Source: Asterionella formosa
Lineage: Eukaryota
Assembly: GCA_002256025.1 (NCBI GenBank)
Contig: NKIB01012981.1
Location: 46,399 to 66,398 of the forward strand
Direction: 5' to 3'
DNA: 20,000 bases
Shown: positions 1 through 20,000 of the stretch, piece after piece
Layout of the letters: each line of letters opens with the position of its first letter
Numbering within the stretch: the first letter of the stretch is position 1
Notes under the pieces: model-generated
The model's input: the letters and a program-made list of their open reading frames with translations, nothing else
Told to the model about the DNA's origin: nothing
Database searches by the model: none
Program-made: the position numbers and the translations under genes

Positions 1-1443
1 ATCCGACGTGAACGTGTCATGAAGCGTTTACTGGGCGAAATCGAGGAAGACACTAAGAAACGAAGAGAGCGGGCGAAGGATATATTGGGGAAGCTTCCTG
101 ACATTCCATCTCAATCTACTGAGTCTATTGCAAAGGCGCTCAAGGCTGCCCAAGAAGATGTCAAGAAGATACGTCGTCAGCAACTTGGCAAACCTGATGT
201 TGACAATGTCGACGAAACTGGGAGCTTTACCTCAACTCCCAAGCTCAAGTCTAGCGCGGACAAAGCTCGTGAGGCTGCAGCTGCCGAGGCTGCTGGAGGC
301 CGACCTCGCCTTCCCGGGGATAAGGATGTCACCCGCGGAGAGCTGGGATCATTGAAAATTGAGTCCTCGTCTACGACCACAACTGGTCCACTTACAGTTG
401 AAGTCACTTCTACCTACAACAAGGAACAGTCCGACCCTCCAATGCGCAAACACTGCTTCCAATATACGATCAGAATCACCAACAACTCTGCTACCGACAC
501 AATTCAGTTGCTCGGACGTCGTTTCGAAATTCAGACTGTCGGAAGCAGTATGAAAGATGTTGTACAGGGCGAAGGAGTCACTGGCCGTCAACCTATTTTG
601 AAGCCCGGTGAGGTGTTTGAATACACTTCTACTGCTCCTTTGAGCGTGAGGCCAATTGGAACCACTATTATTGCTGCTCGAATGAGTGGTGAGTACCGCT
701 ACATTGCCTTGAACCCTGGACAGGAAACTGCTACTCCCGACCAGATTGAAAAAGGCGGTGATGTCACTGCCGCATTGGGCATGTTCCACTTTATCTTTCC
801 TGAATCCCAACAAGTCACTCCATTCAAGCGAGCCGACGAAGAAGACGATGATGACGACGAAGACGATGATGATGACGTGTCTGTGAAACCAACTGCTGGT
901 GTTCCTTCTCGTCCTGCCCCGAAGACTCCAACCGCTGTACCAGCATCATCTCTTCCTGGAGATGAGGACATGAAGACGGGAGATATCACTTCTGTGCTCA
1001 ATGATTCCTCTGACAGCATGACTGAAAATGTCCGTGTGCAAGTTTCTTCGTCGTACCGACCAGAAAGGTCCGATGCTGGAATGGAGAAGCATTGCTTTGC
1101 TTACAACATTCGCATCACCAATGAGTCGAAGGATAGCATCCAACTTGTCTCGCGCCGTTTCGAAATTCAGACTATTGGAAGTGTTAACAAGGACGTGGTG
1201 CAAGGACCTGGTGTCACAGGCCGACAGCCAATACTTAAACCTGGAGAGAGCTTTGAGTATACGAGCACCGCACCGTTGAGCGTGCGACCAATGGTGGAAA
1301 AGACCCCAGTCGTTGCACGGATGCAAGGAGAATATAACTTCGTTGTGATGGGTGCCGATGGTCAGACTCCAATCAGTTCGTCGCCTCTTCAGGCAAAATT
1401 GGGCACATTTCACTTTATCCTCCCTGCCCTTGATATTGCGTAA
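1..1443 (+). CDS. Tandem ApaG (DUF525)-domain protein, probably 5'-partial
   Basis: Frame 1 is open from base 1 (first ATG at 19) to TAA at 1441-1443. It has two copies of the ApaG signature (F-x-Y-x-I-R-I-T-N ... V-Q-G-x-G-V-T-G-R-Q-P-I-L-K-P-G-E-x-F-E-Y-T-S) at about nt 310-800 and 952-1425, joined by a poly-Asp/Pro-rich linker. The N-terminus is charged and helical-looking. Confidence 0.9.
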   Translation: MRRERVMKRLLGEIEEDTKKRRERAKDILGKLPDIPSQSTESIAKALKAAQEDVKKIRRQQLGKPDVDNVDETGSFTSTPKLKSSADKAREAAAAEAAGGRPRLPGDKDVTRGELGSLKIESSSTTTTGPLTVEVTSTYNKEQSDPPMRKHCFQYTIRITNNSATDTIQLLGRRFEIQTVGSSMKDVVQGEGVTGRQPILKPGEVFEYTSTAPLSVRPIGTTIIAARMSGEYRYIALNPGQETATPDQIEKGGDVTAALGMFHFIFPESQQVTPFKRADEEDDDDDEDDDDDVSVKPTAGVPSRPAPKTPTAVPASSLPGDEDMKTGDITSVLNDSSDSMTENVRVQVSSSYRPERSDAGMEKHCFAYNIRITNESKDSIQLVSRRFEIQTIGSVNKDVVQGPGVTGRQPILKPGESFEYTSTAPLSVRPMVEKTPVVARMQGEYNFVVMGADGQTPISSSPLQAKLGTFHFILPALDIA

Positions 1444-2413: not shown

Positions 2414-3888
2414 TCATTCTCTTGCTAACAAAACATCCGCCATGAGGCCTTTCAAAATATCCTTACTCGTCGACTTGCAAGAATGTCCCTTCGTGCATTG
2501 TCCTTTCAAGTTGTCTGCGGCAATTAATTTAAGATTGTGCCTGATATAATTGCGGACTCCTTTTGCCTTTTCCATGGACACAAAGAATACTTCTTCGACA
2601 CCCTTCCAGATTTCGTTTTGCACATTTGCTTGAAATTCGGCCTTTTTATAAACATCTCGTTTTCCATGATTTCCAATTATAACGTTTGCCATACCTGCCG
2701 ACGTTGGTGTTCGCGCACGAATAGCACCAGGCATCAACTCCCGAAAGCGCCGCAAACAATGATCATCCACATCATTGTTGCATGTGGCTAGCACCTTGTG
2801 CAAATTCTGATGCGTTCCCCTGGGTAAATCATCTCGATTGACCTCTTTTCCATACACCATGGTCAAACCTGGAGTTACGCAACAAGCACTCCTTACCCCA
2901 ACCCAAAAGCCCGCGGCAACGTCAGCTGTCGATTGGAATGGTGAACTATATTGCCATTCCATGTGATTGAACAAACACCAAATCGTCCAAGAAAACGGAT
3001 CAATAATGTGTTCGATTGCCTTCGCTTGAATGTACTCTACAAAGCTAGTGTGCAAGCCATCGTCCCCGTCAAGGCGAGTTTCCAGGACTATGCGACTTTG
3101 AGCAGCATCATGTAGTTGTTGCAAAAGGTGCAAGTCTCCGCTCCACAAGGAATCAATAGTGATATCTTCAATTGCCAGTGCATGACGAAAACCCTCTGGG
3201 TTTTCATTAGAAGCCACAAGCAAGTAGTTGGGATGACCCTTGAGCAGGTCAAGTAATGGTTCTTTTACCCGTTGGTCCAAATCTGGATCTGTCCGAATGA
3301 TCCAGATAAATTCTTGTGATGTTTGCTTCACAATTGATGGTAGACAAAAGTATTCAAAGATTTTCAGGCGAGCCAAACCTAAATCGACCAATTGAGGTTG
3401 GTGTTGCATGAATCTGCGAAGATAAATATTCACAAGGAGAAAAAATGAGGACGGATACGGTGACGAACATGTGAGAGTCAAAATACTAGTCAATGTAACA
3501 ATGTGTACGTGCACATAATTGTTCACACAATAACCTACCTTGTTTGAATGACGTGAACAAGGTCTGACTGGCTCCAGGTCGAAAGCAGCAAACTGAACGA
3601 ATTCAAGTCATCTGTTACCAGCGAAGGCTTGACTGATGGTTGCCTTGGCGCAACTAGTATACTAAAAGTTGAAATGATAGCCCCAAAGAAAAGTGTACAT
3701 GCGAAGCAAAAAATCAAAGTCTCTTGGGACGTGTGTCCCCGCGAGCGCCTTCGTTTTGTCCGATCAGGAGATTGGGAAGCGGTAGGCGATGATGCTGGAG
3801 TTGAAGTCCTGCTCGACTGAGGCGATCGTCGAAGCAGCTTTACCAAAACAGAATGGGCCGAATTTGAAGGGTAAGGCAGTGACTTCAT
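2414..3888 (-). CDS. Type II membrane glycosyltransferase-like protein (putative rhamnosyltransferase, PF11316-like); exons 3888-3539 and 3413-2414
   Basis: A 125-bp intron (3538-3414; donor AG|GTAGGT, acceptor TCTTCGCAG|A) joins ..HVIQT-R-FMQHQ.. in frame. Exon 1 encodes a hydrophobic TM segment (LIFCFACTLFFGAIISTFSILV). Exon 2 has RL-x-IFE-x-FCLPSI-x-x-QT-x-QEF-x-WII and TRLDGDD (DxD-type) motifs typical of this GT-A-like family. The start ATG at 3888 is inferred. Confidence 0.8.
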
Positions 3889-4689
3889 ACTATGCCCATA
3901 CCACAGGGTGGCACCAATTTGCAACTAGGGTTAATCGCTGGATTTGGCAAGGATCGAACAGTAATTTTTGTCGTTGAAAGAACGGAAATGTGGTGGACAA
4001 CTTTTCGATCATTGTGAATCAATGTTGAACGTCTTTGGTTTCGGAGGGAAGTCGGAATTGTTTCGCCACATAATACTTAAAATCTACTGAGAATTGGTTG
4101 GAACGTGGACGTGAAAGGTCGCCAAGGTGTGCGAGCCGGCTTGTCGATATGATAATGGCATGCTCCAATCACACAAATATTGCATGTATGTGTACATTTA
4201 TTCATTTTTGATTGTGACAAAAAAGCAAACATTGATGAATTCTACATACCGGTATATTGTATATAAATCTATCTACCCTGCATATTTAGTACCGGTAGAT
4301 GTGTTGGTGTGGTCATCGGGGGATGCAAAATGATCGAACGCCTCTTGTTCTAGATTTATATTACATACAATGACGCACGCACATCTACGGCATCCATATC
4401 TATTGCATAAATGATCTTCCACAATACTACATATTACAGTGCCGGCATATGTTCCGGTACTCAATGTTTAGCAGAATTAAATCCGATCATCATTAATATA
4501 TTCTGACAAAATCCCTGTTTGTTATAATCTAGTACCAGGTACTCCGAGTATCTGGTATGCACACTAATTGGCAACATCCTTGAGGTAAATGAAAGCTGTA
4601 GAGGGCAAACAGGTACATTACCCGACTTTCCCTTCGGCTTCATTTTTGTTATCGATGCCATAATTGTCGAGAAATCCTAAGGAAGTCCA

Positions 4690-5181
4690 TGTTGGTATTG
4701 ACGCTTGACATTACTGCTCCTATTTGTTTCTCTCTGTTTTAAGAGGCCCGATGGTGCGAATGTCAGGTTTTCCGGGTTCTGTCGCGCCACATTTGGATTG
4801 TTCGAGTTTGATCAGATGAGACTACATAGTATTTGCTGTTTGCGTTTTTTGTGGCTGAGAAGGGGTCCATGCTTGGCGATGGATCTGGATAAGTCTTCAG
4901 TCTACCGGGCTAAGGTTCATGGCAGTGTTGGTTTCGCTGTTCTGCACTGTCTGTTGGAGCTTGGTTAAGGTATATATGTAAATATTGTTCTGGTCGTTGT
5001 TAGCTGTTGGCTCTTCCATGTTTGGGCAATGAGTAACTCATTGAATAACTACCGGTTTGTTTATCTTTCTACCTCACAATAATAATATAGACTGCTTTAT
5101 TCAGTTAAGTGTGTCCTAGTTATTTTTCAAACTACTGTTATCTACTTCGATTTCAGTTGGGTTTCCCAAATTGACACAACA
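4690..5181. mobile_element. Possible solo LTR or LTR remnant (~490 bp)
   Basis: Begins TGTTG and ends CAACA (5-bp inverted TG..CA termini). It is G/T-skewed, has a TATA-like TATATATGTAAATA at ~4971 and a T-rich 3' part. No target-site duplication is visible (GTCCA vs GAAGC). Confidence 0.3.
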
Positions 5182-5650
5182 GAAGCTGCTAGCCTAATAC
5201 CGGGGTCGTTGTGAATGCATTATCTCGGTATATGCACAAAAATAATTGTGCACCTCCATCAGCACTGCACTCCCGAGGTTTTAGGGCAAGTTTAGTAAGC
5301 AAATCAAACAGCATGTTGGCCATTCTCATCAAACATACTGAACGGTGCCAAACGAGCCAATATTCTTGGATTTTCAGCAGCAGAGGCATTTTCTACTAAT
5401 TAGTGAACGAATGGTTGGGAAACCAAGCGAACTTCAAGGAACTTAAGGCAGGAAGTGATTAGAATAGAAAGAGAAAATCAATTACAGATAAAACGACTGG
5501 CAAAAAGCCTACCGGTTTGCCGTTGACAACTGTGAAGAATAAATCGGCAATAAATAAAGTAAACCATTACCACATGTACATGCCTATGATGCAGTCATAC
5601 AACTTCCCAAAAAATTTCCCTCTCCCTGAAAAGCAAGTATTCATGCGATT

Positions 5651-8600
5651 TTAGGCTGGACTGAGTACCTCATGTTCCTCCTGGATAGATGATTTATCTC
5701 CTTCGTCACTCTGATCAGACTCCTCGTCCAGGGGAGCAGCAAGCACCTTGCGTTTTCGATTAGCACCACTTAATATAGACGCATTGGTTGCGACATCACC
5801 TGTCGCCTCTTCTTCTGACTGAAGATTGGCAATAAAGTGAAGTGCATCCTTTTTGGATAAATGATGCAGCGATGAATGCTTCTGCTGCAAGGAGATGCCG
5901 AAGCAACGATCAGCTACCGATACCAACTCTGGTCTGAATGTGGAGACGATGAATTGAGTGGGGTTGTCGACATTGTGTGCCTGTTTCTGAATTAAAGCAC
6001 TGACAGCAGCGCGATAAGTTGAGTCTAGGGCTTGATCCAACTCATCAAACAGGTAGAATGGTGCTGGGTCGCATCTCTGAATACTGAAAATAAGAGCCAT
6101 TGCAACCAATGCCTTCTGTCCACCGGAGAGCTGAGACATGAGGTAATTCTCACCGATCGCAGAAAATCTGACCTTCACCTCTACACCTCGGTAAAGGCTA
6201 ACTTTGGGATTGCTGGGGTCGACTGGTTGCTTCGTCACCTTCGTGCTATCTTCCGAGTCCTGAGAGCTAGTTACTTCGCCATCAGTCTCTTCCGAGTCAT
6301 CCATCGCTGTGCGCAAGACCAGTTCGCCAGCACCGTTTGGACAGAGCTCCTTGAACACTTCTTGGAAATGAGAACTAACACCCCTAAAAGTACGGTTAAT
6401 AGCCTCATCCTTCTGGCGGTCGAGACTCTCGATCAGTTCTTCCACCTTCTTTGCACCTTGGTCCAACTCTTCCTTGCGAGTCAAGAGAACTTCGCGCTGC
6501 TCATTGAAATTTACGTACTGATCATAGGCTTTTTTGTTGACATGGGAATACTTCTTGAGTTTCTTGTTTACTTTCTCTAACTCGCGCATCAATGCTGAGA
6601 GGGATAGGCTAGTGTATTTAGCCAGTTCAGCTGGGGGCGGTAAGGATCCGAGCTCTTGAATTTTCCTCATGTACAGCTCACGATTTGAAACTGTCATTGT
6701 ACGCTTGTTCATGAGACGGTCGGATTTTTCCTCAGCGTCACGGAGGCGCCGTGTGATCTCAACGTCTTCTGCCTTGAATTGTTCAATCTTGTTAGAATGT
6801 TGTAGGACCTCATTGTTGAGCGCTACGTCAGTCTTTCGAAGTTCTGCCAATCGAGCTTCAATCTCGTCATTTATTCGAATTGCATCGTCAAGTTCACGTC
6901 GGCGTAGCTCAAGATCCTCGAGTCGCTGTGCTTGCATGGCCATGGAAGAAATTCCAACAAGACTAATACGGCGATTGGTGACATCGTCTATTCCCTCTTG
7001 CAAGAGTTCCTCACGACGCTTGAGAAGGTTATCGTTCAAGAGACTGTCGAGGCGCTGTCGGTCAACACTGAGTTTGCCAACAAAGTCATTTTGAGCATCG
7101 ATTTCAGCAGCAAGTTCGACTTGAACAGTCTTCAGTCTAGCCAACAAAACTCGTTCTTCCTCTGAAAGGGAGGAGGCCAGCTGAGTCTCTTTTTCGGCCT
7201 CTAGACGCTCAATCTCGCTACCAAGACTTGCGATATCGTGTTCAAGGGCCGGGATTATTGTCTTCTCAATCGTTTCCGTATTCTTCTTTTTGGCTTCAGT
7301 GCGAACGCGAAGCCGTGCAGTCTCCGCTTCGATTGAAGTAAGCATGTGGTTCAGGTCACCATGCTTTGCTTCCAATCGCTGCAAATCAGCCACAAGGTTG
7401 GTAGCAGCTTGGTCAACAGATTGTGCTTTACGATTGACTTCACTGTGGTCCGCATCGGCCTTTGCTAATTCTCGTTGCGAAGCCTTGTGCTGCAAATGAG
7501 CACGAAGTCGACTCCTCTGCTGGTCGACATAGCCACCTGTCAATGCCCCCTTACGACTGCAAAGATCGCCCTCCAACGTTATAGCGTCCATGTTGCATTT
7601 TGCACTCCATGTGGAGGCTGCGTCAACGTTGCGAGCAAGAAGCTTCTTACCAAAGACATGCTGCATGGCCCTTGCAACGTTGGCCTCATACTTGATGCAC
7701 TGGGAAAGCAAAGGCTTGACATCAGCGCTTTCCGGATAGTCGGCATGCTCAATTCGTAGTCGGTTGAGAGGAAGAAATGTAACACGGCCAAGTCTTTCAG
7801 TCTCCAATCGTTTCATCAATCGTGCAGCAGTTGCGTCTGTATCCACAATGACGTGGAAGAGAGCATTTTGAGCCGCGACTTCCACTGCGCTCTGAAATTT
7901 TGGATCAACAAGTTCCATGTTATCAATGAGCATGCCGAAGTATTGTTCCCCAATGACAAGACGCTCCTGTTGTACAATATTGCTCAGGGCTTGCAACCCC
8001 ATTGAGGTGGCCCGAGGCATAGATTTGCGAACATCAGCGAGAGATCGCTGCGTATTCTCTCTGGCTTCCTTGACCTTCTCCGATAGTTCATCGCATTTGC
8101 GCCATTGTTCTTTTCGACTGTCAAGAAGCTCCAAACGTTCGCGTTTCTTCTCCTCAATGGCTCGAAATAACGCCTTCAGGGTTTCCACTTTCTTGGTGAG
8201 ATTTGAATTCTGCAGCTCAAATTCATTTGTTTCCTCGACTATCGAGCGACGCAGGTTTGAGAGCGAATCGCGCTGTTCATTGAGCTCGCCCTCCTTGTCG
8301 GATCTGGCAGACTGGAGCTCCTTGATGTGAGAGGCAAGGTAAGCATCACGGTCTTTCTTGCTTGAAAATTGTCGTCCACGACCTTGCTTGGCGTAAAGAC
8401 CTTCCATTTTCTTCTTGGCTTCGTCGTTCTCGTTGTTCAATCGAGTAAGTGATTCCACGGCGGAATCATATTTGGGCCCGATGTCCTCCATCAAGTCCTT
8501 CTGAGCCTTTGCAATCTTCTTGTCGATGAGCTGAATCTCGCGCTCATTCGCCTTTTGAATTTCTTCTCCAGTCTTGACAGACTCCTCGATTTCCTTGCAT

Positions 8601-9790
8601 TCCAATTGCAACTTTGTTCGTAGAGTTACTGCAGCTGTCTTGTCCGCCTCCAAACCAGTCATATTTAGGCGGTATCGTCGCAGGGCATTTTGCTTCGACT
8701 TTCGTTGGGCTTCTTCCGTACGAATTGCGTCGTGTGTTGCCCGAGCCTGGTCATGTATTTCACTGGTAGTCTCGGTTTCGTTTGTCCGCTCGTGTTCAAT
8801 AATGTCCAGCGTCTCTCGCGCTTTGCGGAGTTCCTTGTCGTAGAGAGTATACTCCATTGCACGTCGTTCGCGATCCAGCTTTTGGTATTGCGTGAGTTCT
8901 TCTTTTTCACCCCGAAGTTCTGTAAGACGCTCCTCAATTGTATCGAGAATATCGTTGATTTTTTCAATGGACGACTTGTTCTCCTCCATCTTTTGAAGTG
9001 ACTCTTTTTTTTTCTCGTCATAAACCGTTGTTCCGGCAACTTCTTTGAAGAGGCGAAGGCGTTCGGCGTCATTCATGGTACAGAGTGCATTCACCTTACC
9101 TTGCTGCACAATGTAATACGGATTTGACTTGGAGAAGCCAGCCCCTTCTAGGAGTGACATAATTTCATTCTTATTGGCGCGCTTTCGCTGCAAAAAGAAC
9201 TCATCCTTCTTGTGTCCGACTGTTCGTCGCAAGACAACTTCATCCGAGTTTTCAAGGGAAAATCTGTTGTCTGAGTTGTCAAAGACAATTTCTACAAAGG
9301 CATTAACCGCAGTCGATCCGGAACCTTCGTGAAGGAGAGCTTGACGTTCTTCCTGATGGCGGCGGGACACGAGGAGTCAGTTTACAATGGAACCACTTTT
9401 GCTGTGGGAACGGCGATGTTGGCGGCAAATTCTTCGATATAATCTCAGAAATATCGTGTGAACTTTCCGGGTCGATTTTAGTCTTCCTCCTTCGTTTCGA
9501 ATGATTATTCTGTCCCGGTTTTGTATCGAACACTAATCACGAGGCAAACGCATCGACGACGGACTTGTAACATTCTGAAAACATAGCCATGGTTGCTCGT
9601 AGAATCTACGTACCGTGCGTAGTGTAAAGAACCGCGGACTCAAGAGTGCGAATTGGACGGCATCAAAGAGGTTTGATTTTCCAGATCCATTTCTTCCGAC
9701 GACGGTGTTTGTTCCGGGAGAGAAGGGGTGAATCTCTGGCTGCTGTTTAAATGAACGAAAGTTCGAGATGGTGATTTGCTTAATGTGCAT
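5651..9790 (-). CDS. SMC3: Structural maintenance of chromosomes protein 3 (cohesin subunit), ~1292 aa; exons 9790-9614 and 9352-5651
   Basis: Exon 1 reads MHIKQITISNFRSF... with Walker A GRNGSGKS. A 261-bp intron (9613-9353; GTACGT...ACTGAC...CATCAG) gives LRT-EERQALLHEG, diagnostic of SMC3. Also present: Eco1-target di-lysine context VGHKKDEF, Q-loop NPYYIVQQG, hinge GRVTFLPLNR and KGALTGG, signature LSGGQ, Walker B/D-loop FYLFDELDQALD. An alternative in-frame ATG lies at 9823. Confidence 0.97.
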
Positions 9791-9864
9791 TGGAGTGGAT
9801 GATTGATGATTTGTGCCTATCATTTAGAAATTAACCAAATGCATGTATGATTTTGTTTTTCTGC

Positions 9865-10155
9865 TACCAGGTACCGTACCAGGTACCGGTCTAATTGAGA
9901 TATTCACAGTACAGATACATAGGTGGTACCTGGTACCCTGGTACTGGTACTATGATCGAAGTGAGGAGGAGCCTATCACAGCGATGGCGCGCCATTCTTT
10001 GTCGGATCTACTATACCAGTACAGAGTGAACTACAAGGGTTACCACTGAGTATTATTATCGGTATGAACTTCTTGCCATGTAGCTAGCTGCCTTTTTGTC
10101 TGACAATTTTGAGGATCATTACGTCGACATCACCAAGGTAAATAAGTACCTGGTA
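9865..10155. promoter_or_regulatory. SMC3 upstream region: TACCWGGTA palindrome cluster and E2F-like palindrome ATGGCGCGCCAT (9984-9995)
   Basis: TACCAGGTA at 9865 and 9877, TACCTGGTA at 9927 and 10147. A perfect 12-bp palindrome with a GGCGCGCC core lies ~195 bp upstream of the ATG. Regulatory function is inferred from position only. Confidence 0.45.
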
Positions 10156-11139
10156 CATACGTGCCCTGCAGATATGTATCGGTAAAGCCACTGGTACTAA
10201 GTCTTTCCATCAAAGAACATACCAGTGCACGCTCGATTTTCGTGATATATGGGGCGAGCAACACCGGATAGGTTGGTACATAACATTTTCAACATGAATT
10301 CTTGTGTTTGGTCCTCCGATTGGTCCCCTCTCTCCCTCAGTTAAGTAGAATTGCTACTTAACCTCCTGAACATAAAATCAATTTTAATCCACATGACCCT
10401 GTTCATTCAATCAAAAAACCCAAACTTAGCTACCTGGGTCAAAACCCAGCACTTTAGGTGAAGGGTGAAGTTGTTGCGTCAGTTGTTAAGAAGGGTAGTT
10501 TACGTGCAAATAAATAAGACAAGAATATAGGAACCGACTAGTCTTATACTCCTCTGTCAATTTCAGACAGACAGCATTCATATTTGCTCTACTTATGACG
10601 ATATCCCCCTACCTGTCAGGGGTCTCTGGTGATGTAATATACTATTGCTTGATTTCAGAAGATTAAGTGCTGAGGCAGCCAAGCTTGCAACATGTGGCAT
10701 GTTTGTGAAGAGAATTTCCTTTATAGTGGCAATCACCTGATCACAATTATGTTTCTGCGGCTGCCCAGTCATATTTCTGCAGGAAAGCAAGGCAGATTTG
10801 TCACCATCCTCTAAATATTAGCATTGTTTTCAGTTGCCCTATGATGTAGATCCGTTTCTACTGGTAGCGGATTTTTTCCGGCTAGACTGAATTCAGTCGA
10901 ATATAATGGATTCAGTCTGTATTTTCAATCCATTGTCCCTTGTTCAATTCATCAAATATTTCATTTCTGAAAAGATTATCTGTATTTGCAGAGCAACTGT
11001 GGTAGGTTTCTGACTGGAGGAAGTATGCATAGGAATAAGTTTCTAGGTTTAAAATAAATTCAGTTACATAAAAAGCCTGTCTACCAAGATTATTGCAAAA
11101 TATCTGTGTGGCAAACCTGTAACCCATGGTGAGCTGCTC

Positions 11140-11409
11140 AGATGGATTGAATTATGGTGCAATGAAAATGGTGGAGGGAAACATGCGCCTTGATCATGAA
11201 TCCCAAAAGAGATTACATATACTGAGGTTTTCAACAGCAACTACAAATTTCGACATGCTGTTGATGACCATAGTAATGCAAAGCGGCATTCCTCAATCAG
11301 TTTGAAGGTGCTGGTATGGGCTATGAAATGGTGGCCAAATAAAATTTTAGCATTCCTCTTTTCAGTCACCGATGTTAATGCCATGCTGGCATATGACCAC
11401 TACTTGTAA
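11140..11409 (+). mobile_element. piggyBac-type transposase (DDE_Tnp_1_7) C-terminal relic
   Basis: 11209-11409 translates as EITYTEVFNSNYKFRHAVDDHSNAKRHSSISLKVLVWAMKWWPNKILAFLFSVTDVNAMLAYDHYL*. This matches the piggyBac third-Asp region (Y..RHAVDxxN..R ... KWW.++F..+..+...NA..+Y). An upstream NYGAM segment is in another frame. It is not in the ORF track. Confidence 0.8.
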
Positions 11410-12125
11410 GGAGGAGTTGTGAATTGTGGAATTTTTCATGTTGTGACTGGTACACAACTAAATATTAGTAGATCAAATTTCAATTCTTCTTCGTTAATAT
11501 GTAATCGGGGGCAAAGGTACCAGGTAATATTCATAGATGTATCTGAAGCTAAAGGAAATAACATTTAGGTTTCAAATATTGAGCCTCAAAGAGAGACTGA
11601 AATCAGCCTAATGAGCTGGAAAGAACCAGGTACATAATCTAATACATTTTCTCATCATCTACAATATACCCTGTTAAGTTCTCTACTGTCCACTGTATGG
11701 TGACGAGAATCCAAAAAACTAGACCCACCTTGTTTTTCAGTGCAATGGCCGACATCAAGCTGTTGTCAACTGGCATGTTTGCACCTGTCCAGTCTCCGTA
11801 CTAACTAATGTCTTGCAACTAAAATTGTTCTGTGCATACATGAAAGGACGAAAACATCGAATTGCGATTCTTTGAAAGCAATGTAACCCCCTGTATCGAC
11901 GAATGATATTTGTTTTATTCAGGAATTTAAATTTTTTCTTGCAGTCACCAGGACATTGATAGTAAAGAGAGGAATTGTGCCTCGGGTCTGATGTCGCAGG
12001 AGATGAAACGATGAATATCTGGACTCAGGCCAATGTATGTGTGACCAGAATCAATGAAGAAAGAGAGGGTAAATTTCTCAGCAAAGAGAAATTTGATCAA
12101 AGGTTCTGACGCAAGTGTTGGTGCA

Positions 12126-12986
12126 TCAGGTTTCTTGCAAATTGCATCGGATGCGCCTACCGAAGGATATCTTTTCAGGCACTGAGAGTACAGCTTTCGA
12201 TGAAAATGTTTCAGTCAAATCATCAACACTGTCAGTAGTATCATGAAGAAAGGCACATTTGCTGCCTCTAAAGCATCCTCCACTGGAACGAAAAAATCTG
12301 CAAGTAGTGATGGCTCGTTTTTCTTTCTGGTGCTGTCGTCGTCCCTGTTTCTTGGCTTCCTTGGATGGATCCGGCTCCATATTCATCCTTTGATCGTTGT
12401 CTACAGCAACATGCCGTGAATGTTTTTCAATCCATTTCATCTTTGCTGAATTTTTTTCTTTCTTCCTCGAATGAAACCTAAACCACTTGGGGTAATCATG
12501 AGCTTGCATAAGATGATAATGCCGCTCCTTGTCGCTCCCAAATCGACCCAGACAAGTCGTCACCAAGCATTTATAGCTACCTTGGTTACGCTCGAGAGAT
12601 GCTGCGAAAAAAGAATCATGCCTTTCTTCCAAATGGAAATCCAGCAGTCGATCGCATGGAAATATTTCGTGACAAATGTGACATTGAAAGACATGGGTAG
12701 TTTCGTAGTGTAATTCCCAGGCCGCCATGGACTGCAACACCGAGGAACAAAGCGGGCACCGATATTGTGGAGTTTTTTCACGACTTTCGTGATCAATTTC
12801 GTCGCTGATATCACTGTGTCCCATCAATTCATTATTTTCAGTGACAACAATGGCAATGGTTGCATCATCCTTGTGTGCAAGTCGGTCTCCCGGTAAAAAG
12901 AAGGCATCATTCATTTTTCTGCGTTTTCGAGTACATGGCGGATCGACTTTCCGTCCTCCCATGGAAGTACTTATGGTGGATTCCAT
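12126..12986 (-). CDS. ZNF511-like C2H2 zinc-finger protein with a C-terminal CCCH finger
   Basis: Three C2H2 fingers: CPLC..HYETTH, CHIC..FP..RLLDFHLEERHDSFF, YKCLVTTC..F..R..HL...HDYPKWFRF. The terminal VPEKISFGRR fits the ZNF511-family layout. An added C-x8-C-x5-C-x3-H finger (CRFFRSSGGCFRGSKCAFLH) is present. Start is uncertain: ATG 12986 chosen, frame open to 13106. Confidence 0.8.
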   Translation of the reverse strand: MESTISTSMGGRKVDPPCTRKRRKMNDAFFLPGDRLAHKDDATIAIVVTENNELMGHSDISDEIDHESREKTPQYRCPLCSSVLQSMAAWELHYETTHVFQCHICHEIFPCDRLLDFHLEERHDSFFAASLERNQGSYKCLVTTCLGRFGSDKERHYHLMQAHDYPKWFRFHSRKKEKNSAKMKWIEKHSRHVAVDNDQRMNMEPDPSKEAKKQGRRQHQKEKRAITTCRFFRSSGGCFRGSKCAFLHDTTDSVDDLTETFSSKAVLSVPEKISFGRRIRCNLQET

Positions 12987-13736
12987 GGTGCTTTGTTGAA
13001 GATCACAAGAGGCCGAGCCCACTGCAATGCTTTGAGCAACTGTGCAACCATGACATGAGAATAATATATTGGTGTGGTATATTTTTGCTCCGTGCGCATG
13101 AATCACGACGACAAGAAATCATCATAGGAAGAAAACTTTTCGACGCGTGACCGAGAGTCACGGTATATCATTACGGACTCCGGAGTACAAATTTACTGTA
13201 GCTATTTATTTCAAAAACACTACCGGAAGGATGGCTTGCTCAACTGGTTCATCAGTTACCAAGTCCTACCGGGATGTACCGTTAGTCGTATTCTGAAAAT
13301 CCGAGTCGTGTTCAGTGACTTATGCAACAAATCGTCATCGATCAATAACAGGATATGTTTCTTAAAAAGAATAAATGACATCGAACTCTGGCCTGTCTTA
13401 CCGGTTCATGGCAGGCATGAAACGAGTCATCGGGAGTGAGTTGAAGCTGAAGTACCCTAGGTCGTAGGTACCAGTACCAGGAACCTGGCACAGAATGTAG
13501 GGTGTACGACCACATACCGGTATACCGGAATGAGGATGTCCAGCAGCATACGACTTTCACCAATCATCACTCTATTGTTGATTGTTTGGGACATCCTGAC
13601 TCATTTCGTCGAACCAGCTTTGTCTGTGCTCCTCGTGTCTCGCGAAGTCTTTCACTGCGTCTCATTGGCTACTTTTCAAACTAAGAAGGAAACAATAGGA
13701 TAAAATTCCATCATTGTGAAGAATATAAGCCGAGAC

Positions 13737-14261
13737 ATGACGCAGGCATTTCAACGCGAAAAGGTCCCGGAAAATAAGGAGTTCCGAATGTCCACGAGAG
13801 AGAACTCCGAATACAAATGGAAAACAGGCAAAGTGGTTGGCGCTTTTGAAGTGTCAAGCCATCCCACCTTGGATCTCTTGGAGCCACTTAAACCGATGCT
13901 CGCATCGGCTCAGTATGCGGAAAAATGGTTAGAAGCTCAAGAATTGTGGAAATCTATGCATTTGCGAAAGTCATTCGTGGAGGCTGCAAAATCGGTTCCA
14001 GCTAAGACTTGCTGCTGCGGAATGATTACAGATGATAAGGAAACAATGAATGATATGGTACCATTTTTGAACAATACATGGGCCAAGGAGGCGAATAAAA
14101 AACTTGAAGACAAGGGGCTTTATGTGGACACCTATCTTTGGCGTTGGAGCAATATCTCGGGGGAGGCAAATACGATAATTATGCTTATTAGGTTCCACGA
14201 AATTCAAAACGATCCAGAAAAACTTAACAATGCTGTCGGATATTTAGGTGATTCGAGATAA
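13737..14261 (+). CDS. Hypothetical protein, 174 aa, CCCG motif; paralog of 17708-18223
   Basis: Clean ATG-to-TAA ORF. About 58 identities over ~143 aligned residues (~40%, manual) with the ORF at 17708. Confidence 0.85.
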   Translation: MTQAFQREKVPENKEFRMSTRENSEYKWKTGKVVGAFEVSSHPTLDLLEPLKPMLASAQYAEKWLEAQELWKSMHLRKSFVEAAKSVPAKTCCCGMITDDKETMNDMVPFLNNTWAKEANKKLEDKGLYVDTYLWRWSNISGEANTIIMLIRFHEIQNDPEKLNNAVGYLGDSR

Positions 14262-15196
14262 AGTGAATGGTCATGGATATCAGTCTGATATCATGGCCTG
14301 TCAAGTGCATATTTCTGTGGTGGCCTTTTCTCATACTCAATCAGCTCATTCCATATTGCTAAGTCCCTTCTATTATTGAGGCAGCATTGCTATCAGTATG
14401 ACCAAAAATTATGGAACACTATAGTTCTTTCAATGAGTTGATTAAAGCAGTTTCAATTGACTTTGAACAAATCTACTTCAAGCAATATCTTGCTCAAATT
14501 AATCTGTTTTGCTTAAAGTAATAAAGTCTTTTTTGTAGTCACATACCAGTGATTACTTGTGCATGATACATTAGTCATATTTATAAAATGCACTACCTGA
14601 TACTGATGGTCTAGACTACTTCGCAGGTTTGCCTACATCTATAGTCTACCTACCAGCCAGCCTAGAGTGTATAGGATCTGGCGAAAAACTAAGGCTAGAA
14701 ATTTCGGGGGAAATCACTTCATGAGAAGTTATATACTGATGCTATTTAAAGGTTACCTATGTATCTAAATTGCCTTCAGAGCTAGCCGACATTGAGCAAG
14801 CAATCATTGTCCAAGAAATCAGCAAAATCGGCTTTTTCAACTGTCTCCAAAACATCGGAATCAGAATCACTTAGTGCCGAAACATTATCATCCAAATAGG
14901 AGTCTTGTGATTCAATTTTAAGTCGCCAAACCTCCTGTACAAAAAACTCCATTGTAAGTGGCTGCATGCTGCATTATTTATATGCTGATTAGTTTTTGAG
15001 AATTACTTACCTCCAACCCAAGACCGCAGTTACCGAAATTTTTTTCTACCAATACTCTTACTCCAGGGAGTGAACACCAACACATCTTCCACTGCCCCAC
15101 CTCACTATGGTCCGTGGAGCGCAATAGCGCCAAATCTAGAAATAGGCTAGGATAATGGCGCTATAAAAATGATTGATATGTATAAGAATTACTTAC

Positions 15197-15587
15197 CTCC
15201 ATTTGATTGGCCTGGTCTGTGAGATCTTGCAAAACCATGCCGGCCACACTGGATACACATGTAACATTTTCTTGGGTGGCTGCTTGCCAGCACTACACGC
15301 ATACCAGTAGAATGCAGTTTGCCTTGAAAGAATGGGCAGAGTGTGTTGCTTTTCCTTTGATGATCATTTCTGCTCCAATGTTTGCATTTTTCATTTCTCG
15401 TTATGTCTTCTCTTGCCGCTGCCTCATGAATTTCTGTTAGCTAGCGCCACATCTGAGCCAAAAGTTTACCTGATTTGTTGTCTTTTACGCGCAATTTCCA
15501 ATGATTTTAAAATTTCTCAAATGGAATCATGTCATTGAAAATTGGCTCATTAAAAATTCTTAGTTCCTCCAGGGAATTTCGGCAACC
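15197..15587 (-). pseudogene. Decayed exon with a degenerate zinc-knuckle (probably transposon-derived)
   Basis: Bounded by acceptor-like TTGCTTAG and donor GGAG|GTAAGT. It reads GCRNSLEELRIFNEPIFNDMIPFEKF*NHWKLRVKDNKSGKLLAQMWR*LTEIHEAAAREDITRNEKCKHWSRNDHQRKSNTLCPF, with two in-frame stops and a C-x2-(W)-x4-H-x7-C motif. Confidence 0.45.
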
Positions 15588-15759
15588 CTAAGCAATATAT
15601 ATATTTCCTTGAGAATGACAGAAATGAATACATTTCAGTGTTTAGTTGTACTAATCGATCGAACCTAGTGAAATGGAGGTTCAAGGCAGTTTTTAACCAG
15701 GTACTGGTTGTGTATACTGGTGCATATACAAATGATACCACGGAATTAAACAAGCGAAA

Positions 15760-16560
15760 ACTAATTTGGGGTTAGCTGACAGATTATGTAAAAAATCAAT
15801 TCTACTTGAGTCAAGCTTTGTTTGACAAAGTATCGCCATGACAAAGAATAATAATTCACATGGAAAGAGAAATTCAATTTGGATCCAATGAGTATTCAAT
15901 CGAAAACAAACAGTTTGGTCAGGTTTGTGTCGACTTGTTCGAAAAGTGCCTACAAACAGTTTGTTGTACAGGATAATATATCATTATATGATGAATACTA
16001 GTGATGATTTCAATGGAAAGCAAAAATCGAGTTGGGTATACTGAAAGTTGAACCAAATAATATAATTTCTGTGTTGACTAGGTTGAAAACAGCTTTGTTG
16101 TGTTGGATAATCAAAGGGTCATATCATGAAAGATAATGATTTTATTCAAAGTGAGACTCGGTTTGGGTCTGCTGAGAGTTGAACCCAATGAGACAATTAT
16201 ATTTTCCTCGAATAATTAAAACTGCGAAAATGTTGTTTTGAGCACAATGAAAGACTTGCCTACAAATAGGTGAATACGAATGGGCCATAAAACATACTAT
16301 CCTTTTTGATTTGTAAGGTAGCTAATTTCATCTTCATGACGAAGTTTATTAGTTCATGAATTTGAAACCGAGATATGGTGTTGGTCCACTGACAGCCAGT
16401 TCAACTCAAGAAATATAATACAATTTGAGTTTATCCACTTGTCAAAACGAAAACCAACATAGCTGGTATTGAGATTTTGAGTCTATAATCATAACAAAGT
16501 AGATTAACACATGTGGAGAGTGAAAATGTATTCGGGTTGCTGATAGATTCATTAAAATCA
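15760..16560. repeat. Highly decayed array of ~131-133-bp units
   Basis: 15955-16087 aligns with 16088-16220 (AACAG.TTTGTTGT..GGATAAT..ATAT.ATGAA..TTGGGT.T.CTGA.AGTTGAACC.AAT). Related cores occur at ~15765, ~16380 and ~16531, and TGCCTACAAA at 15947 and 16257. Confidence 0.6.
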
Positions 16561-16969
16561 AATTCTAATTGAGTGGAGTTTTGTTCAAAGAAGAAGGGAA
16601 CAAAGTTAGAACAATAAGCTGTCAAACATGCATTAAACATGGTTGTACTGAGTATAGTCAAGTTCTGTGGGCATGAAAGAGGAAGGAAGGGAAAGATTTG
16701 TGAGAAAAGGAAATAATATAGTAGTAGCAAATCAAAAAATAAAGATAAAGAATAGTAAACATTTATTTTAATATTTTCAAAGATCATGCTTTACTACTTA
16801 TCTTGCTTAGCTTGTGCATTTCAACCTGCATCAACTATTCAATGACTTCCTGCAAGCAGGCGTACCGAGCGCAATAAGCATTCGCCAAAAAAATGATTAA
16901 TGTGGGCAGCCATCAAGTCTTGCAGCAATGAAATGATGGAGCAACGGCGCCATGGTGTGTAAGTGTGTT

Positions 16970-17130
16970 AATCGTGATGTATGTCTCAAAATTCTTTCAA
17001 ACACACTTGAACTCACGAAAAACTTATCCGTGTACACAAGAAAGGATTCCATAAATTAATTTAGCTTTTCGTGGGACGCTACCGTACTACGTTCTTACCA
17101 GGCAGCTACAGGACAATCGTACGAGAGAAC
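16970..17130 (+). mobile_element. Possible frameshifted PIF/Harbinger transposase relic
   Basis: Allowing frameshifts it reads ..TKTY-RVHKKGFHKLI*L..ATVLR-FLPGSYRTI. This resembles the Harbinger F..xYRM....F..L and LRFLAGGSY motifs, and the FEKTYRMSHRAFKKL segment of the ORF at 19345. Confidence 0.3.
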
Positions 17131-17707
17131 GCCGTGAAGGTGATCTTCACCATAACTTCAACCGAAAATCATTAGCTTCACCGTGTTCGTCTTGATGATT
17201 AACAGCTTGAACATTTTCTCAAATACCGGACGATTGTCCGGTGGAGGTACCTTATACACAGAATCCTAGTACTTTGTCCTGTAGAACTGAAGTGATGGGA
17301 AATTAATTTCTAATGATGCATGCCTATGTTCCCAGTACAGAATTGCAAGTACAACCTGGTACCAGGTACCATAACATGGAACAGGTACCTTTTTTACCAG
17401 GGACCACATTCCGTTAAGCAATTCATAGTAGACCTCATACATAGTCTACCATCTACCAACGGTGATAACGTAATATATATATACCATCTGGTATACCGGT
17501 ACCGGTATATGCGTACTATTATTATACATTTCATATCCATTTATATGTGAAGCTTGTTCCTTTCTGTCCTGTCGCTCGCATGTGCAGAATCATACGTAGT
17601 TTCAATAATGTACCAGTAATCTCAATCAATACTGACACAATCCTGAATTCTCAAACAGCTGAGACCGGAAATTGTTCACCTTTGCCAACGAACAAGACGA
17701 CGACAAG

Positions 17708-18223
17708 ATGACAAAGCCCACGTCAACGCCACACATAAACAGCAATCCATTTGCGCCCGAAGAAGAAGCTGAAGATGCGGCGCATCGGAAGGCAACAAGA
17801 GGCAGGTTCGACCATTTGTGGCGAACAAGCGACGTGATTGGAGTTCTCGAAGTTTGTTTTGAACCAGCATTCAACCTTGATGCACCATTGAACCCTGTGT
17901 TGAGTGATTCAAAACATGAGCACAAGTGGCACGATGTGAAAGACTTGTGGCGACATATGAAATTGCGAAGATCTTTTGTTACAGCTGCAAAAGCTATTCC
18001 ACCTGAGAAATGCTTCTGTGGATTGTTCACTGACGATGACAAAACTGCGCAAAAGCTGGTTGCAGAATTGAATGAAAGCTGGGTCAAGGAGGTGAACAAG
18101 GAACTCCAAGAAAATGGTATCTTTTTGGATTTCTTTCTTTGGACTTGCCCAACCAGCAAAGATGAAAAGGAGATCTCGAACATTATGTTGATTCGGTTTC
18201 ACGAACTTAATGGAACAATGTAA
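17708..18223 (+). CDS. Hypothetical protein, 171 aa, CFCG motif; paralog of 13737-14261
   Basis: Clean ORF. Shares KW..LW..M.LR.SFV.AAK..P...CxCG..TDD..T....V..LN..W.KE.NK.L...G...D..LW and IMLIRFHE with the upstream paralog. Confidence 0.85.
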   Translation: MTKPTSTPHINSNPFAPEEEAEDAAHRKATRGRFDHLWRTSDVIGVLEVCFEPAFNLDAPLNPVLSDSKHEHKWHDVKDLWRHMKLRRSFVTAAKAIPPEKCFCGLFTDDDKTAQKLVAELNESWVKEVNKELQENGIFLDFFLWTCPTSKDEKEISNIMLIRFHELNGTM

Positions 18224-19344
18224 CTCACGAACCAGAAGCATTTTTAAAGTGGATATGAAGCGATTGGAATCAACGTACACTTTATGAATTGAAACGTCTC
18301 TGAAGCACAAGCCCTTATGGTATATGATTGACGCCTGTTTAACATCGTGGGAACGTTGAAGTCTCAGATTGCAGTCCTTTTGTAGTCTAGATGGATCAAC
18401 TTATTTGTATTGAATGCTAGTTCAACTCTAGTACCACAGGTCATATGTTTATACGCTTCAACGTCGCCTTTGATTCGTGAATACTGCTGATGCAGAAGAT
18501 GCCCTCAATGACATCCCGATCTGTTCGCTGTTGAGAAGCTAGATAATGTTGGCAATACACAGATGCATTGTAAATAATTGTGCATGCAGTAACGCATTCG
18601 GACTGGTACCAGGTACCTGATATCGTAGCATTCCGGTATGTTGATAAGAAGCAAAGAAATTTCCGGTTTACGTTCATAGCATCATCTCCGTATACCCTTA
18701 TGTAAAAATCGTTTGGCTTTCAGCGAGCCAAGAAGATCGAAAAGCCCTCTCCGAGATATAGCGGTGGTTACTACGTCCCCGATACCATGTACCGGTACAA
18801 CCCAAAGATTGCGCCCCTGTACATAGGTATATTATTTATATATTCAAGAGCATGTTGTGTCCCGCGGGATCGAAATTTAAAAATTTGATTGCGACTACGA
18901 CAGCCTTATTACATGGTCCCCCCTCGGACCAGCATCGGTGGTGCTTGGAACCAGGTATCAGGTACTAGGCCACTCACTGACCGGGCATTCAGGATATGAG
19001 CACGATCTCTGATACAATGTGATGATACTGGGACTATGGCATGTCTAAAAGGGTCGTTCTTATCATTTTTTTTCGTGTATCACGGAATTTGAATTTTTTT
19101 GAAAATGTATCAGCAACGGTAATTCGATTTGAACTGAATTTCATTCATTCCAAAAGTGTCACTGTATCACTGATTTGTGATCACATTGTATCATGGAGTA
19201 ACATGAATCTTCAACGGCAACTGGCTGGCGAAGATCATGTGTATATCCCTCCGGAATATAATGATGGTCTTGATATCAAGCAACAACAAAATATAATTAC
19301 CGGGAAACTAAATATAATATTAAAAACACACATTTGCATGAATC

Positions 19345-19713
19345 ATGTCGTCGCCATTTGATTTACTTGATGATAATGATGATGACAGAAGTGATCTTGA
19401 TTTCTTCTTCCTCTGTCATTTAGCTAAGGAAGCAGAGGAAAAAGAACACTCATCCAAACGACAAAGGCGACGCTGTAAACGGCAGCTTCAGTCATCTGAA
19501 CGACGACGACAACGAAGGCACAAGTGGCACCATGAAAGAATCTCCTGGCAATCACATGTCGAGAAACTCAATCACGAGATTGCTTTCGAGAAGACATACA
19601 GAATGTCACACAGAGCATTCAAAAAACTCACCTCCATGCTGGAAATTCAGATTGCAGGGAATTATTCCAAATGTGGCACTTCTGAGCCCATAATTCCCGA
19701 AATTGCGTCTTAG
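19345..19713 (+). mobile_element. Truncated PIF/Harbinger (HARBI1-like) transposase, N-terminal part only
   Basis: An acidic N-terminus and Arg-rich stretch are followed by ERISWQSHVEKL..FEKTYRMSHRAFKKLTSML..IIPE, the typical Harbinger N-terminal motif order. The ORF stops before the DDE core; a +1 shift after IPE gives LRL. Confidence 0.7.
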
Positions 19714-20000
19714 TCCTGCTGAAGACTGAAGCACTTGAAGTTTCACTGCATATACTCGTTCAAAACACTCTAATGCATTTGCCATTTGTACCATAGAAGA
19801 GGAATGATGGGACAAATTGGATGAGGTAGATGAACATTTTCCTTTCTTCGAGCCAACAGTCTTTGATGATAAGGATGAAGATTTGGCACTATCAGTACTT
19901 TCACGGAATGATGATTTTGGAAGCAATGGAACAGCGAAATTGAGAAGGTGAGGAACTTGGCACAACCATAAATGGTAGTAATATATATAAGGTCGGCTTC

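Follow-up and report, generated by a model that had tools for sequence, protein, structure and literature searches.

A TA-framed palindromic word family enriched in gene-proximal non-coding DNA of a 20-kb diatom sequence

Introduction

The Drosophila DRE, which is bound by DREF, and the sites of yeast general regulatory factors of the Reb1 type are short, partly palindromic words that cluster in the nucleosome-poor DNA 5′ of numerous housekeeping genes and in some cases at 3′ ends. HIP1 of cyanobacteria is a short perfect palindrome with a methylase-type core that is strongly over-represented and abundant inside genes as well. Here, we describe a family of words built on the half-site TACC(W)GG (W, A or T) in 20,000 nucleotides (nt) of Asterionella formosa DNA (contig NKIB01012981.1, positions 46,399 to 66,398), hereafter the window, to which all coordinates refer unless another locus is named. 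This family shares with HIP1 its perfect palindromy, its strong over-representation, and its type of core, but it differs in occurring at chance level in the coding sequences (CDS) of the window, in its eukaryotic host, in having a spacer of either 0 or 1 nt, and in its 5′ bias. In clustering upstream of many genes, it may be likened to DRE and Reb1-type sites, although its density and overlapping arrays exceed any that we know of for those systems.

The closest precedent comes from the diatom Fistulifera solaris, for which DREME was applied to the 500 nt upstream of homoeologous genes (PMC5935921, supplementary Table S4). The motifs listed there as biased to the Fso_l subgenome include MCCTGGTA (6.9e-99), CCWGGTA (3.7e-95), and TACHRGTA (4.3e-75), together with ACCTGGTA, CWGGTAS, RGTACY, CGGTACY, and AGGGTACS, and no matching plant transcription factor is given for them (PMC5935921). 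In the other subgenome the bias is toward TABASTA-type words, and the homoeolog carrying TABASTA tends to be more highly expressed (PMC5935921). The words of the window, namely CCWGGTA/TACCWGG (25 occurrences), ACCAGGTA/TACCTGGT (11), TACCGGTA (6), and TACCAGTA (6), match this listed set. The words are the same (TACHRGTA covers TACCGGTA, TACCAGTA, and TACTGGTA), no factor is assigned, and the placement is likewise upstream, with enrichment within ~500 nt upstream of genes in four of four 5′ regions (five genes) of the window.

That table already places the word family among the promoter motifs of a distantly related diatom, and our finding is partly novel. F. solaris is a marine raphid pennate, and the SMC3 protein encoded in the window is 54-58% identical to the SMC3 of named raphid pennates. 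Table S4 provides a motif list alone, with no palindrome or array anatomy, coding comparison, or mechanism; the density, arrays, and solo half-sites described here go beyond it. The F. solaris supplement was the sole exception in a full-text literature search, which returned no main-text description for diatoms of this word or of any general promoter word. Crypton termini, as described in PMC3212892, were considered and are unlike the TACC(W)GG word, and a search of the main text of a report on Phytophthora factor specificities (PMC11267843) for six related strings found none of them.

Results and discussion

Enrichment of the word family in the window

A pattern search identified eight copies of TACCWGGTA (4533, 9865, 9877, 9927, 10147, 11518, 17360, and 18607) and six of TACCGGTA (4247, 4290, 13515, 17494, 17500, and 18790), which reproduced every coordinate of the 14 perfect sites reported in the initial annotation of this DNA. 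That annotation had estimated that fewer than one site would be expected; dinucleotide shuffling gave means of 0.03 and 0.07 for the two words, or ~0.1 together, and neither observed count was attained in any of 200 shuffles. Markov models of orders 1-4, trained on the window itself and for that reason a conservative background, predicted 0.06, 0.14, 0.31, and 0.74 copies of TACCWGGTA and 0.07, 0.17, 0.58, and 1.90 copies of TACCGGTA. The family also led an unbiased ranking of all 6-, 7-, and 8-mers under the order-2 model at each length, with CCGGTA/TACCGG (27 observed versus 4.6 expected) and CTGGTA (32 versus 9.0) among the 6-mers and ACCGGTA (17 versus 1.4), ACCAGGTA (11 versus 0.6), and TACCGGTA (6 versus 0.17) among the longer words. 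The additional near-matches that had been listed (5050, 5510, 11625, 13469-13488, 15696, and 18950) are genuine half-sites or arrays. The enrichment of the word family in the window is real and strong.

Placement relative to coding sequence and gene orientation

The CDS set comprised 9108 nt, and the non-coding remainder 10892 nt. In agreement with the earlier remark that intact CDS held no copies, no perfect site (of 14) and a single half-site match (of 52) fell within CDS. The two half-site counts in CDS, 1 and 0, compare with expectations of ~1 and ~1, indicating chance occurrence with neither enrichment nor depletion, whereas the non-coding counts of 26 (1.8-4.5 expected) and 25 (1.6-2.9 expected) correspond to a 6- to 15-fold surplus. 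A surplus found only in non-coding DNA, with CDS at chance, argues against a process that alters all DNA alike, since such a process would raise the CDS counts too.

Within the non-coding DNA, we compared four 5′ intergenic regions (at most 750 nt each) that serve five genes with five 3′ flanks. The 5′ regions contained 35 half-site matches in 18 clusters (12.3 matches/kb), with four or five clusters in each of the four, and the 3′ flanks contained 12 matches in nine clusters (3.2/kb). The difference is significant by binomial test for half-site matches (p = 2e-5) and for clusters (p = 0.018). The convergent 3′ gap at 1444-2413 lacks perfect copies, as had been noted, and holds a lone half-site at 1884; a single half-site match lies in the 2.3-kb repeat interior at 14675-17000. 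The description of the sites as promoter-side thus survives as a 5′ bias (12.3 versus 3.2/kb) and fails as a rule, some sites lying in leaders or tails covered by RNA contigs. The 5′ placement is a bias, not a rule.

These distributions bear on the idea, raised in the initial annotation by analogy with HIP1, that a methyltransferase of Dcm or HpaII type, or biased repair of the Vsr kind, makes or maintains the cores. The cores are indeed CCWGG and CCGG, and TACCAGTA, the product of a CpG transition in TACCGGTA, is present six times against 0.26 expected, which is compatible with a methylated CpG. A genome-wide repair bias should, however, act at synonymous sites too, and the CDS showed no surplus; the coding enrichment that characterizes HIP1 does not extend to this window (1 versus ~1 and 0 versus ~1). 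The enrichment is 5′-biased, and the bare cores CCGG (47 copies) and CCWGG (36 copies) lie mostly outside the family, so that specificity resides in the TA..TA frame. We regard a methylase- or repair-driven origin as very improbable.

Anatomy of half-sites, palindromes, and arrays

The repeating unit is the half-site TACC(W)GG, with the core ACC(W)GGT. TACCGG occurs 17 times in the window, CCGGTA 10 times, TACCWGG 12 times, and CCWGGTA 13 times. The perfect palindromes are inverted half-sites that overlap each other, and the spacer of 0 or 1 nt (W) yields the two forms, TACCGGTA and TACCWGGTA. Palindromy exceeds chance, TA following 6 of the 17 TACCGG and 8 of the 12 TACCWGG matches.

At four places (9865-9890, 9925-9950, 17355-17370, and 18603-18619), the words form short (GGTACCW)n arrays in which GGTACC recurs with a period of 5-8 nt. 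The overlap of neighboring copies through a shared GGTACC had been pointed out before, and this hexamer occurs 14 times in the window (13 versus 1.1 expected in non-coding DNA). GTAC was considered as the true core and rejected, since enrichment among NGTACN hexamers is limited to GGTACC, AGTACC, and GGTACA, the others occurring at chance. Microsatellite slippage with a 7-nt unit would account for the periods of 12, 7, and 8 that Tandem Repeats Finder reported at 9865-9888 and 9924-9950. The long head-to-tail arrays typical of a microsatellite are lacking, however, since the arrays do not exceed 3.9 copies and the majority of family members are single sites or solo half-sites.

The arrays can also be read as TA dinucleotides spaced by CCWGG, CCGG, CCG, CCAG/CTGG, CCCTGG, CCA, CCATG, and CCATCTGG. 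Among all TA-X-TA words, CCWGG (8 versus 0.06 expected), CCGG (6 versus 0.07), and CCAG/CTGG (6 versus 0.28) are three of the four most enriched forms of X. This regularity speaks for a second explanation, in which the words are remnants of the insertion and excision of a TA-targeting cut-and-paste transposon of the Tc1/mariner type or of double-strand-break repair. If the element ended in CC(W)...(W)GG, words such as TA-CCGG-TA and TA-CCWGG-TA would remain after it left; excision from GG-TA-CC would yield two new GGTACC sites and so let an array grow, and the location would follow from build-up in open DNA of promoters or linkers. All of the arrays consist of TA plus units made of CCAGG/CCTGG prefix-plus-suffix combinations, and the feature expected of such footprints, TA on both sides of a few nt drawn from both element ends, is present. 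Tc1/mariner elements do leave short footprints, given as 2-4 bp (PMC7913693); like them, the words of the window are TA-bounded, a few nt long, and set in unrelated flanks. The units here are, however, 4-5 nt, the longer of which exceeds the quoted range. Moreover, 15 solo TACCGG/CCGGTA matches lack a second TA.

The spectrum of imperfect copies bears on both explanations. The commonest one-mismatch variant of TACCGGTA is the CpG-transition product TACCAGTA/TACTGGTA (n = 6 versus 0.26 in shuffles); frequent decay variants of this kind would be expected of footprints. At outer positions, the variants AACCGGTA (4), TACCGGAA (4), and TACCGGGA (3) are largely transversions, which fits footprints less well, and inner-position variants mostly occur 0-1 times, with the exception of TACCGATA (3). 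A core that is kept while the outer positions are soft is the pattern of a degenerate binding motif. On the nucleosome-organizing role suggested in the initial annotation, spacing between clusters gave no more than a post hoc hint of a preference for ~145 nt (24 pairs versus 13.9 expected, p ~0.01, with bins picked after the data had been seen).

Dispersal of the sites and the search for a parent element

Sequencing runs labelled freshwater, lake water, or algae contain the DNA of the window, the DNA runs among them with up to 92% of the words sampled from the 10-kb stretch that was searched. Contigs from four runs, two of DNA and two of RNA, were compared with the window. Several contigs match an array alone and then continue into unrelated sequence, with loose ends at 4550, 9890, 9944, 17354 (eight contigs), and 17371. 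Five contigs of DNA run X2 link array to array across 18-38 unrelated letters; their depths of 18.7-36.5 compare with 36.4 for the single-copy contig over 2047-10966 and hint at many such clusters in the same genome. The array-only matches are short, of 90% likeness, and metagenomic, so their source could be other organisms. A scan of viral contigs for a three-unit array gave three hits, which by eye resembled coding DNA from contigs with no relation to one another and were put down to chance.

Could the sites be copies or fragments of one MITE (miniature inverted-repeat transposable element) family or another repeat? They are, like MITEs, dispersed, short, non-coding, and gene-proximal, and repeat-rich DNA (14675-17342 and 18677-20000) is close at hand. 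Among repeat families with sites in them, however, the largest is 15 nt long with five copies, and the sole longer pair is 38 nt at 71% identity. The initial annotation had named confinement of all copies to a single MITE or transposable-element family as grounds for rejecting its proposal; apart from the 38-nt pair, the shared sequence does not exceed 15 nt. To look for terminal inverted repeats, we paired opposed half-sites separated by 40-3000 nt and compared the 20 nt on their inner sides; 82 such near pairs averaged 6.0/20 matches against 5.9/20 for 560 far pairs, with a best near pair of 12/20, the chance level for 82 tests. Arrays reach ~4 units at most, and the one match in 14675-17000 shows a repeat interior poor in the word. 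The sites do not make up a MITE family: they lack a conserved body and, beyond the word itself, terminal inverted repeats, and their flanks are unrelated. A repeat-family or slippage origin is accordingly extremely unlikely in our judgment.

The members of the 38-nt pair, 9900-9937 and 17326-17363, lie in the SMC3 and paralog 2 promoters, which are otherwise unrelated. A further word, CAGTACAG, occurs three times on one strand (9907, 10017, and 17333) and in each case adjoins an array 5′ of SMC3 or paralog 2.

For transposon footprints, the same pair comparison found no TA-flanked element with matching ends in the 20-kb window, a point against that account. Three boundaries of repeated elements, at 11627, ~17342-17354, and ~18968, adjoin arrays and speak for it. 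At the first of these, within AACCAGGTAC, eight DNA contigs of the repeated element cease matching at 11627, and the RNA contig of the zinc-finger gene ends at 11629. The three adjoining elements look like different families, however, which would point to a general insertion hotspot instead.

No difference at arrays appeared among those listed for runs X2 and X8 (~1-2% divergence), beyond which there were 206 further substitutions and 31 insertions or deletions. Two strain sets from the metagenome survey described below (L018/L019 and L021/L022/L023) differ by 2-10 substitutions and no insertions or deletions and are uninformative on array stability.

Relation to transcripts

RNA contigs, which derive from metatranscriptomes, cover 5379-9805 (SMC3), 11629-12960 (zinc-finger gene), 13212-14534 (paralog 1), and 17718-18897 (paralog 2); window segments lacking such coverage were given no evidential weight. 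An RNA-level signal in untranslated regions (UTRs), acting in stability, localization, or 3′-end formation, is conceivable in view of this coverage. The contigs include the cluster at 13221-13528, with five sense-strand half-sites in a contig that starts at 13212, as well as the sites at 18607, 18790, and 5510, the last within the SMC3 3′ UTR, and RNA contigs from elsewhere end in arrays. The best arrays, 5′ of SMC3 and paralog 2, nevertheless lie outside the RNA contigs, the array at 9865-9890 starting 60 nt past the outermost SMC3 contig end (9805). The word is moreover palindromic at the DNA level and keeps no consistent orientation toward the gene, contigs are no proof of transcript ends, and nothing in the window reached an Rfam gathering score. 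Judged by eye, 2 of ~10 non-coding RNA contig ends have a half-site no more than 12 nt away, no excess over chance. An RNA signal is extremely unlikely as the basis of the family.

SMC3 loci of other diatoms

The best named relatives of the SMC3 protein are diatoms, Odontella at 67% identity and Thalassiosira-type species at ~59-63%. Querying metagenomes with SMC3 yielded 25 loci, none of them closer than 58-60% identity. Four of these contain perfect sites (L018 and L019, 2 + 2; L021, 1 + 2; L023, 1 + 1), and some of the sites fall inside open reading frames (ORFs) of at least 100 amino acids (two of three in L021 and two of four in L018). Support from the 25 loci for the exact word across species is therefore weak. 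In two diatom lineages, SMC3 intron 1 carries GTAC-rich runs instead.

In unbiased rankings, other diatom contigs among these loci are led by words of their own that are similar in character. In L018, the top word is TACTACTA (24 versus 0.7 expected). Positions 17162-17423 of that locus form a ~260-nt block made almost entirely of TAC/GTA/CTAG words, which lies between divergent ORFs, in a stretch free of ORFs of at least 120 amino acids, and sits upstream of a plus-strand ORF starting at 17615. This block may correspond to the arrays while using another word. The top word of L021 and L023 is CTAGCTA (14-18 versus 0.7-0.9 expected).

A GC-rich palindrome, TGGCGCGCCA, lies at 9985-9994 of the window, ~200 nt 5′ of the SMC3 start codon; we take it to resemble an E2F-type cell-cycle site.

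A putative promoter or chromatin element

Our leading explanation, which we hold tentatively and would not yet call probable, is that the sites are clustered binding sites of a general promoter or chromatin protein. The sites would be homotypic clusters of a short cis-element spread genome-wide in the diatom host. A sequence-specific, probably dimeric DNA-binding protein would recognize the clusters and may mark gene-proximal, mainly upstream, non-coding DNA of most genes, the clusters serving as a general promoter or chromatin-organizing element rather than a gene-specific switch. The surplus that ends at the CDS, its 5′ bias and its presence at every gene, and the variant spectrum favor a recognized cis-element, and the ubiquity of the word argues for a general promoter or chromatin factor over a specific regulator. 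We infer the binding protein, and with it any effect on transcription or nucleosomes, from these observations, from palindromy in excess of chance, from the unrelated flanks of the sites, and from the occurrence of the same words in another diatom's promoters. The two old paralogs are counted in favor as well: their CDS DNA is 60% identical and their upstream DNA is otherwise unalignable, aligning around the arrays only, and both retain arrays 200-350 nt 5′ of the start codon. The earlier proposal of a genome-wide promoter element is in this respect partly borne out, by the 5′ bias, the F. solaris precedent, and the array-sharing contigs, and sits poorly with the members covered by RNA.

Several observations weigh against a binding-site element. 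One half-site match per ~210 nt of non-coding DNA is very dense for a factor site, and simultaneous occupancy of all units in an array is impossible because neighbors overlap at a period of 5-8 nt. We know of no protein that binds the word. Some members are located in transcribed leaders and tails. The variant TACCAGTA is as frequent as perfect TACCGGTA, which suggests decay. The upstream alignment of the paralogs is not significant alone (blastn E = 1.3). The arrays are not conserved at the orthologous SMC3 promoters of other diatoms (25 metagenome loci); GCGC-centered words like TGGCGCGCCA, unlike the arrays, do occur upstream of SMC3 in four of them (L001, L003, L011, and L015). Finally, the two F. 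solaris subgenomes share one nucleus and differ in the enriched word listed for each, which speaks for lineage history rather than regulatory need.

Lineage- and subgenome-dependent enrichment, seen in the word rankings of other diatom contigs and in the F. solaris table, is a point in favor of transposon footprints, as are flanks that bear no relation to one another and arrays that are not conserved at orthologous positions. The number of implied excisions per genome would be enormous, and, to our knowledge, the number of sites and their array clustering upstream of every gene are far above any footprint load on record. We judge footprints to be an unlikely source of the family, though one that deserves serious consideration.

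The cis-element and footprint explanations are not mutually exclusive. Lineage-specific, TA-framed palindromic words could be written into linker or promoter DNA by a self-propagating insertion-excision cycle, in which every excision from GG-TA-CC makes two new targets, and later be co-opted as promoter-marking binding arrays. It would cover TACC(W)GGTA in the window and in one of the two F. solaris subgenomes, as listed in Table S4, as well as different TA..TA words in the second subgenome and in further environmental diatoms. This combination, which we consider distinctly unlikely as a whole, would if true amount to a mutational mechanism that makes promoter elements genome-wide and diverges between sister genomes.

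The word occupies upstream DNA at each gene of the window and reappears in a distant diatom, and according to the F. solaris table it differs between subgenomes sharing a nucleus. It is therefore either a major unrecognized signal of promoters or chromatin, or else what a rapid mutational process has left across the genome. Little is understood about diatom promoters, and either outcome would be useful for promoter design and for the annotation of diatom genomes.

Genes, site clusters, and repeats of the window

The genes and site clusters are compiled in Table 1.

Table 1. Genes and word-family clusters of the window
Feature	Position	Strand	Details
ApaG-domain protein	1-1443	+	
Glycosyltransferase	2414 to ~3888	-	Likely ATG near 3888
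Cluster upstream of glycosyltransferase	4247-4541		TACCGGTA at 4247 and 4290; CCGGTA 4454; TACCAGGTA 4533
Four solo TACCGG, same strand	4903-5515	+	4903, 5050, 5198, 5510; gaps 147, 148, 312 nt
SMC3	5651-9351 and 9613-9790	-	Pfam SMC_N and hinge
Array, TACCAGGTACCG x2 and TACCGGT	9865-9890		75-100 nt 5′ of SMC3 ATG (9790, minus strand)
Array GGTACC-TGGTACC-CTGGTAC-TGGTAC	9925-9950		Inter-TA units CCTGG, CCCTGG, CTGG
Scattered members	10014-10437		TACCAGTA 10014; TACCTGGTA 10147; TACCTGG 10431
Two members	11516-11633		GGTACCAGGTA 11516-11526; AACCAGGTAC 11624-11633
C2H2/CCCH zinc-finger protein	12126-12986	-	
Cluster between divergent zinc-finger gene and paralog 1	13221-13528		Solo TACCGG 13221, 13267, 13399; array GGTACCAGTACCAGGAACCTGG 13467-13488; TACCGGTATACCGG 13515-13528
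Paralog 1, function unknown	13737-14261	+	
Solo half-sites, high-copy repeat edge	17096-17229	+	TACCAGG 17096; TACCGG 17224
Array with further members	17355-17401		Array CCTGGTACCAGGTACC 17355-17370; GGTACC 17384; TACCAGG 17395; 307-353 nt 5′ of paralog 2 ATG (17708)
Perfect 18-nt palindrome TATACCGGTACCGGTATA	17492-17509		Two overlapping TACCGGTA; ~200 nt 5′ of paralog 2 ATG
Paralog 2, function unknown	17708-18223	+	
Array with CCGGTA	18603-18638		Array CTGGTACCAGGTACCTG 18603-18619; CCGGTA 18633; within RNA contigs continuing from paralog 2
TACCATGTACCGGTAC	18781-18799		Contains TACCGGTA at 18790; within RNA contig
ACCAGGTATCAGGTAC	18950-18965		Immediately before multi-copy element start, ~18968
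Multi-copy element ORF	From 19342 (19342-19713)	+	

Scans of the window detected no Rfam family at gathering score and no tRNA. Paralogs 1 and 2 match no Pfam family, and deep RNA contigs extend over both. The SMC3 intron (9352-9612) was confirmed by RNA contigs. The ORF at 19342-19713, which had been labelled a Harbinger ORF, has no Pfam match at E values up to 1 and can be described only as part of a multi-copy element.

By DNA depth in run X2, the repeat at 14675-17342 is present at 10-75 times the single-copy level and that at 18677-20000 at >50 times; a variant of the former, in which 15829-16536 is omitted, is represented by both RNA and DNA contigs. The segment ~10966-11630 is moderately repeated and carries a decayed tail of a piggyBac-type transposase (Pfam DDE_Tnp_1_7, E = 0.022, below the cut-off). 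A 187-nt segment (4797-4983) is absent from the DNA contigs of runs X2 and X8, with seven letters common at the joint, so that strains differ here by an insertion or deletion. A 167-nt unit is duplicated in tandem at 1533-1866 with 93% identity, within the convergent 3′ gap that separates the ApaG-domain gene from the glycosyltransferase gene.

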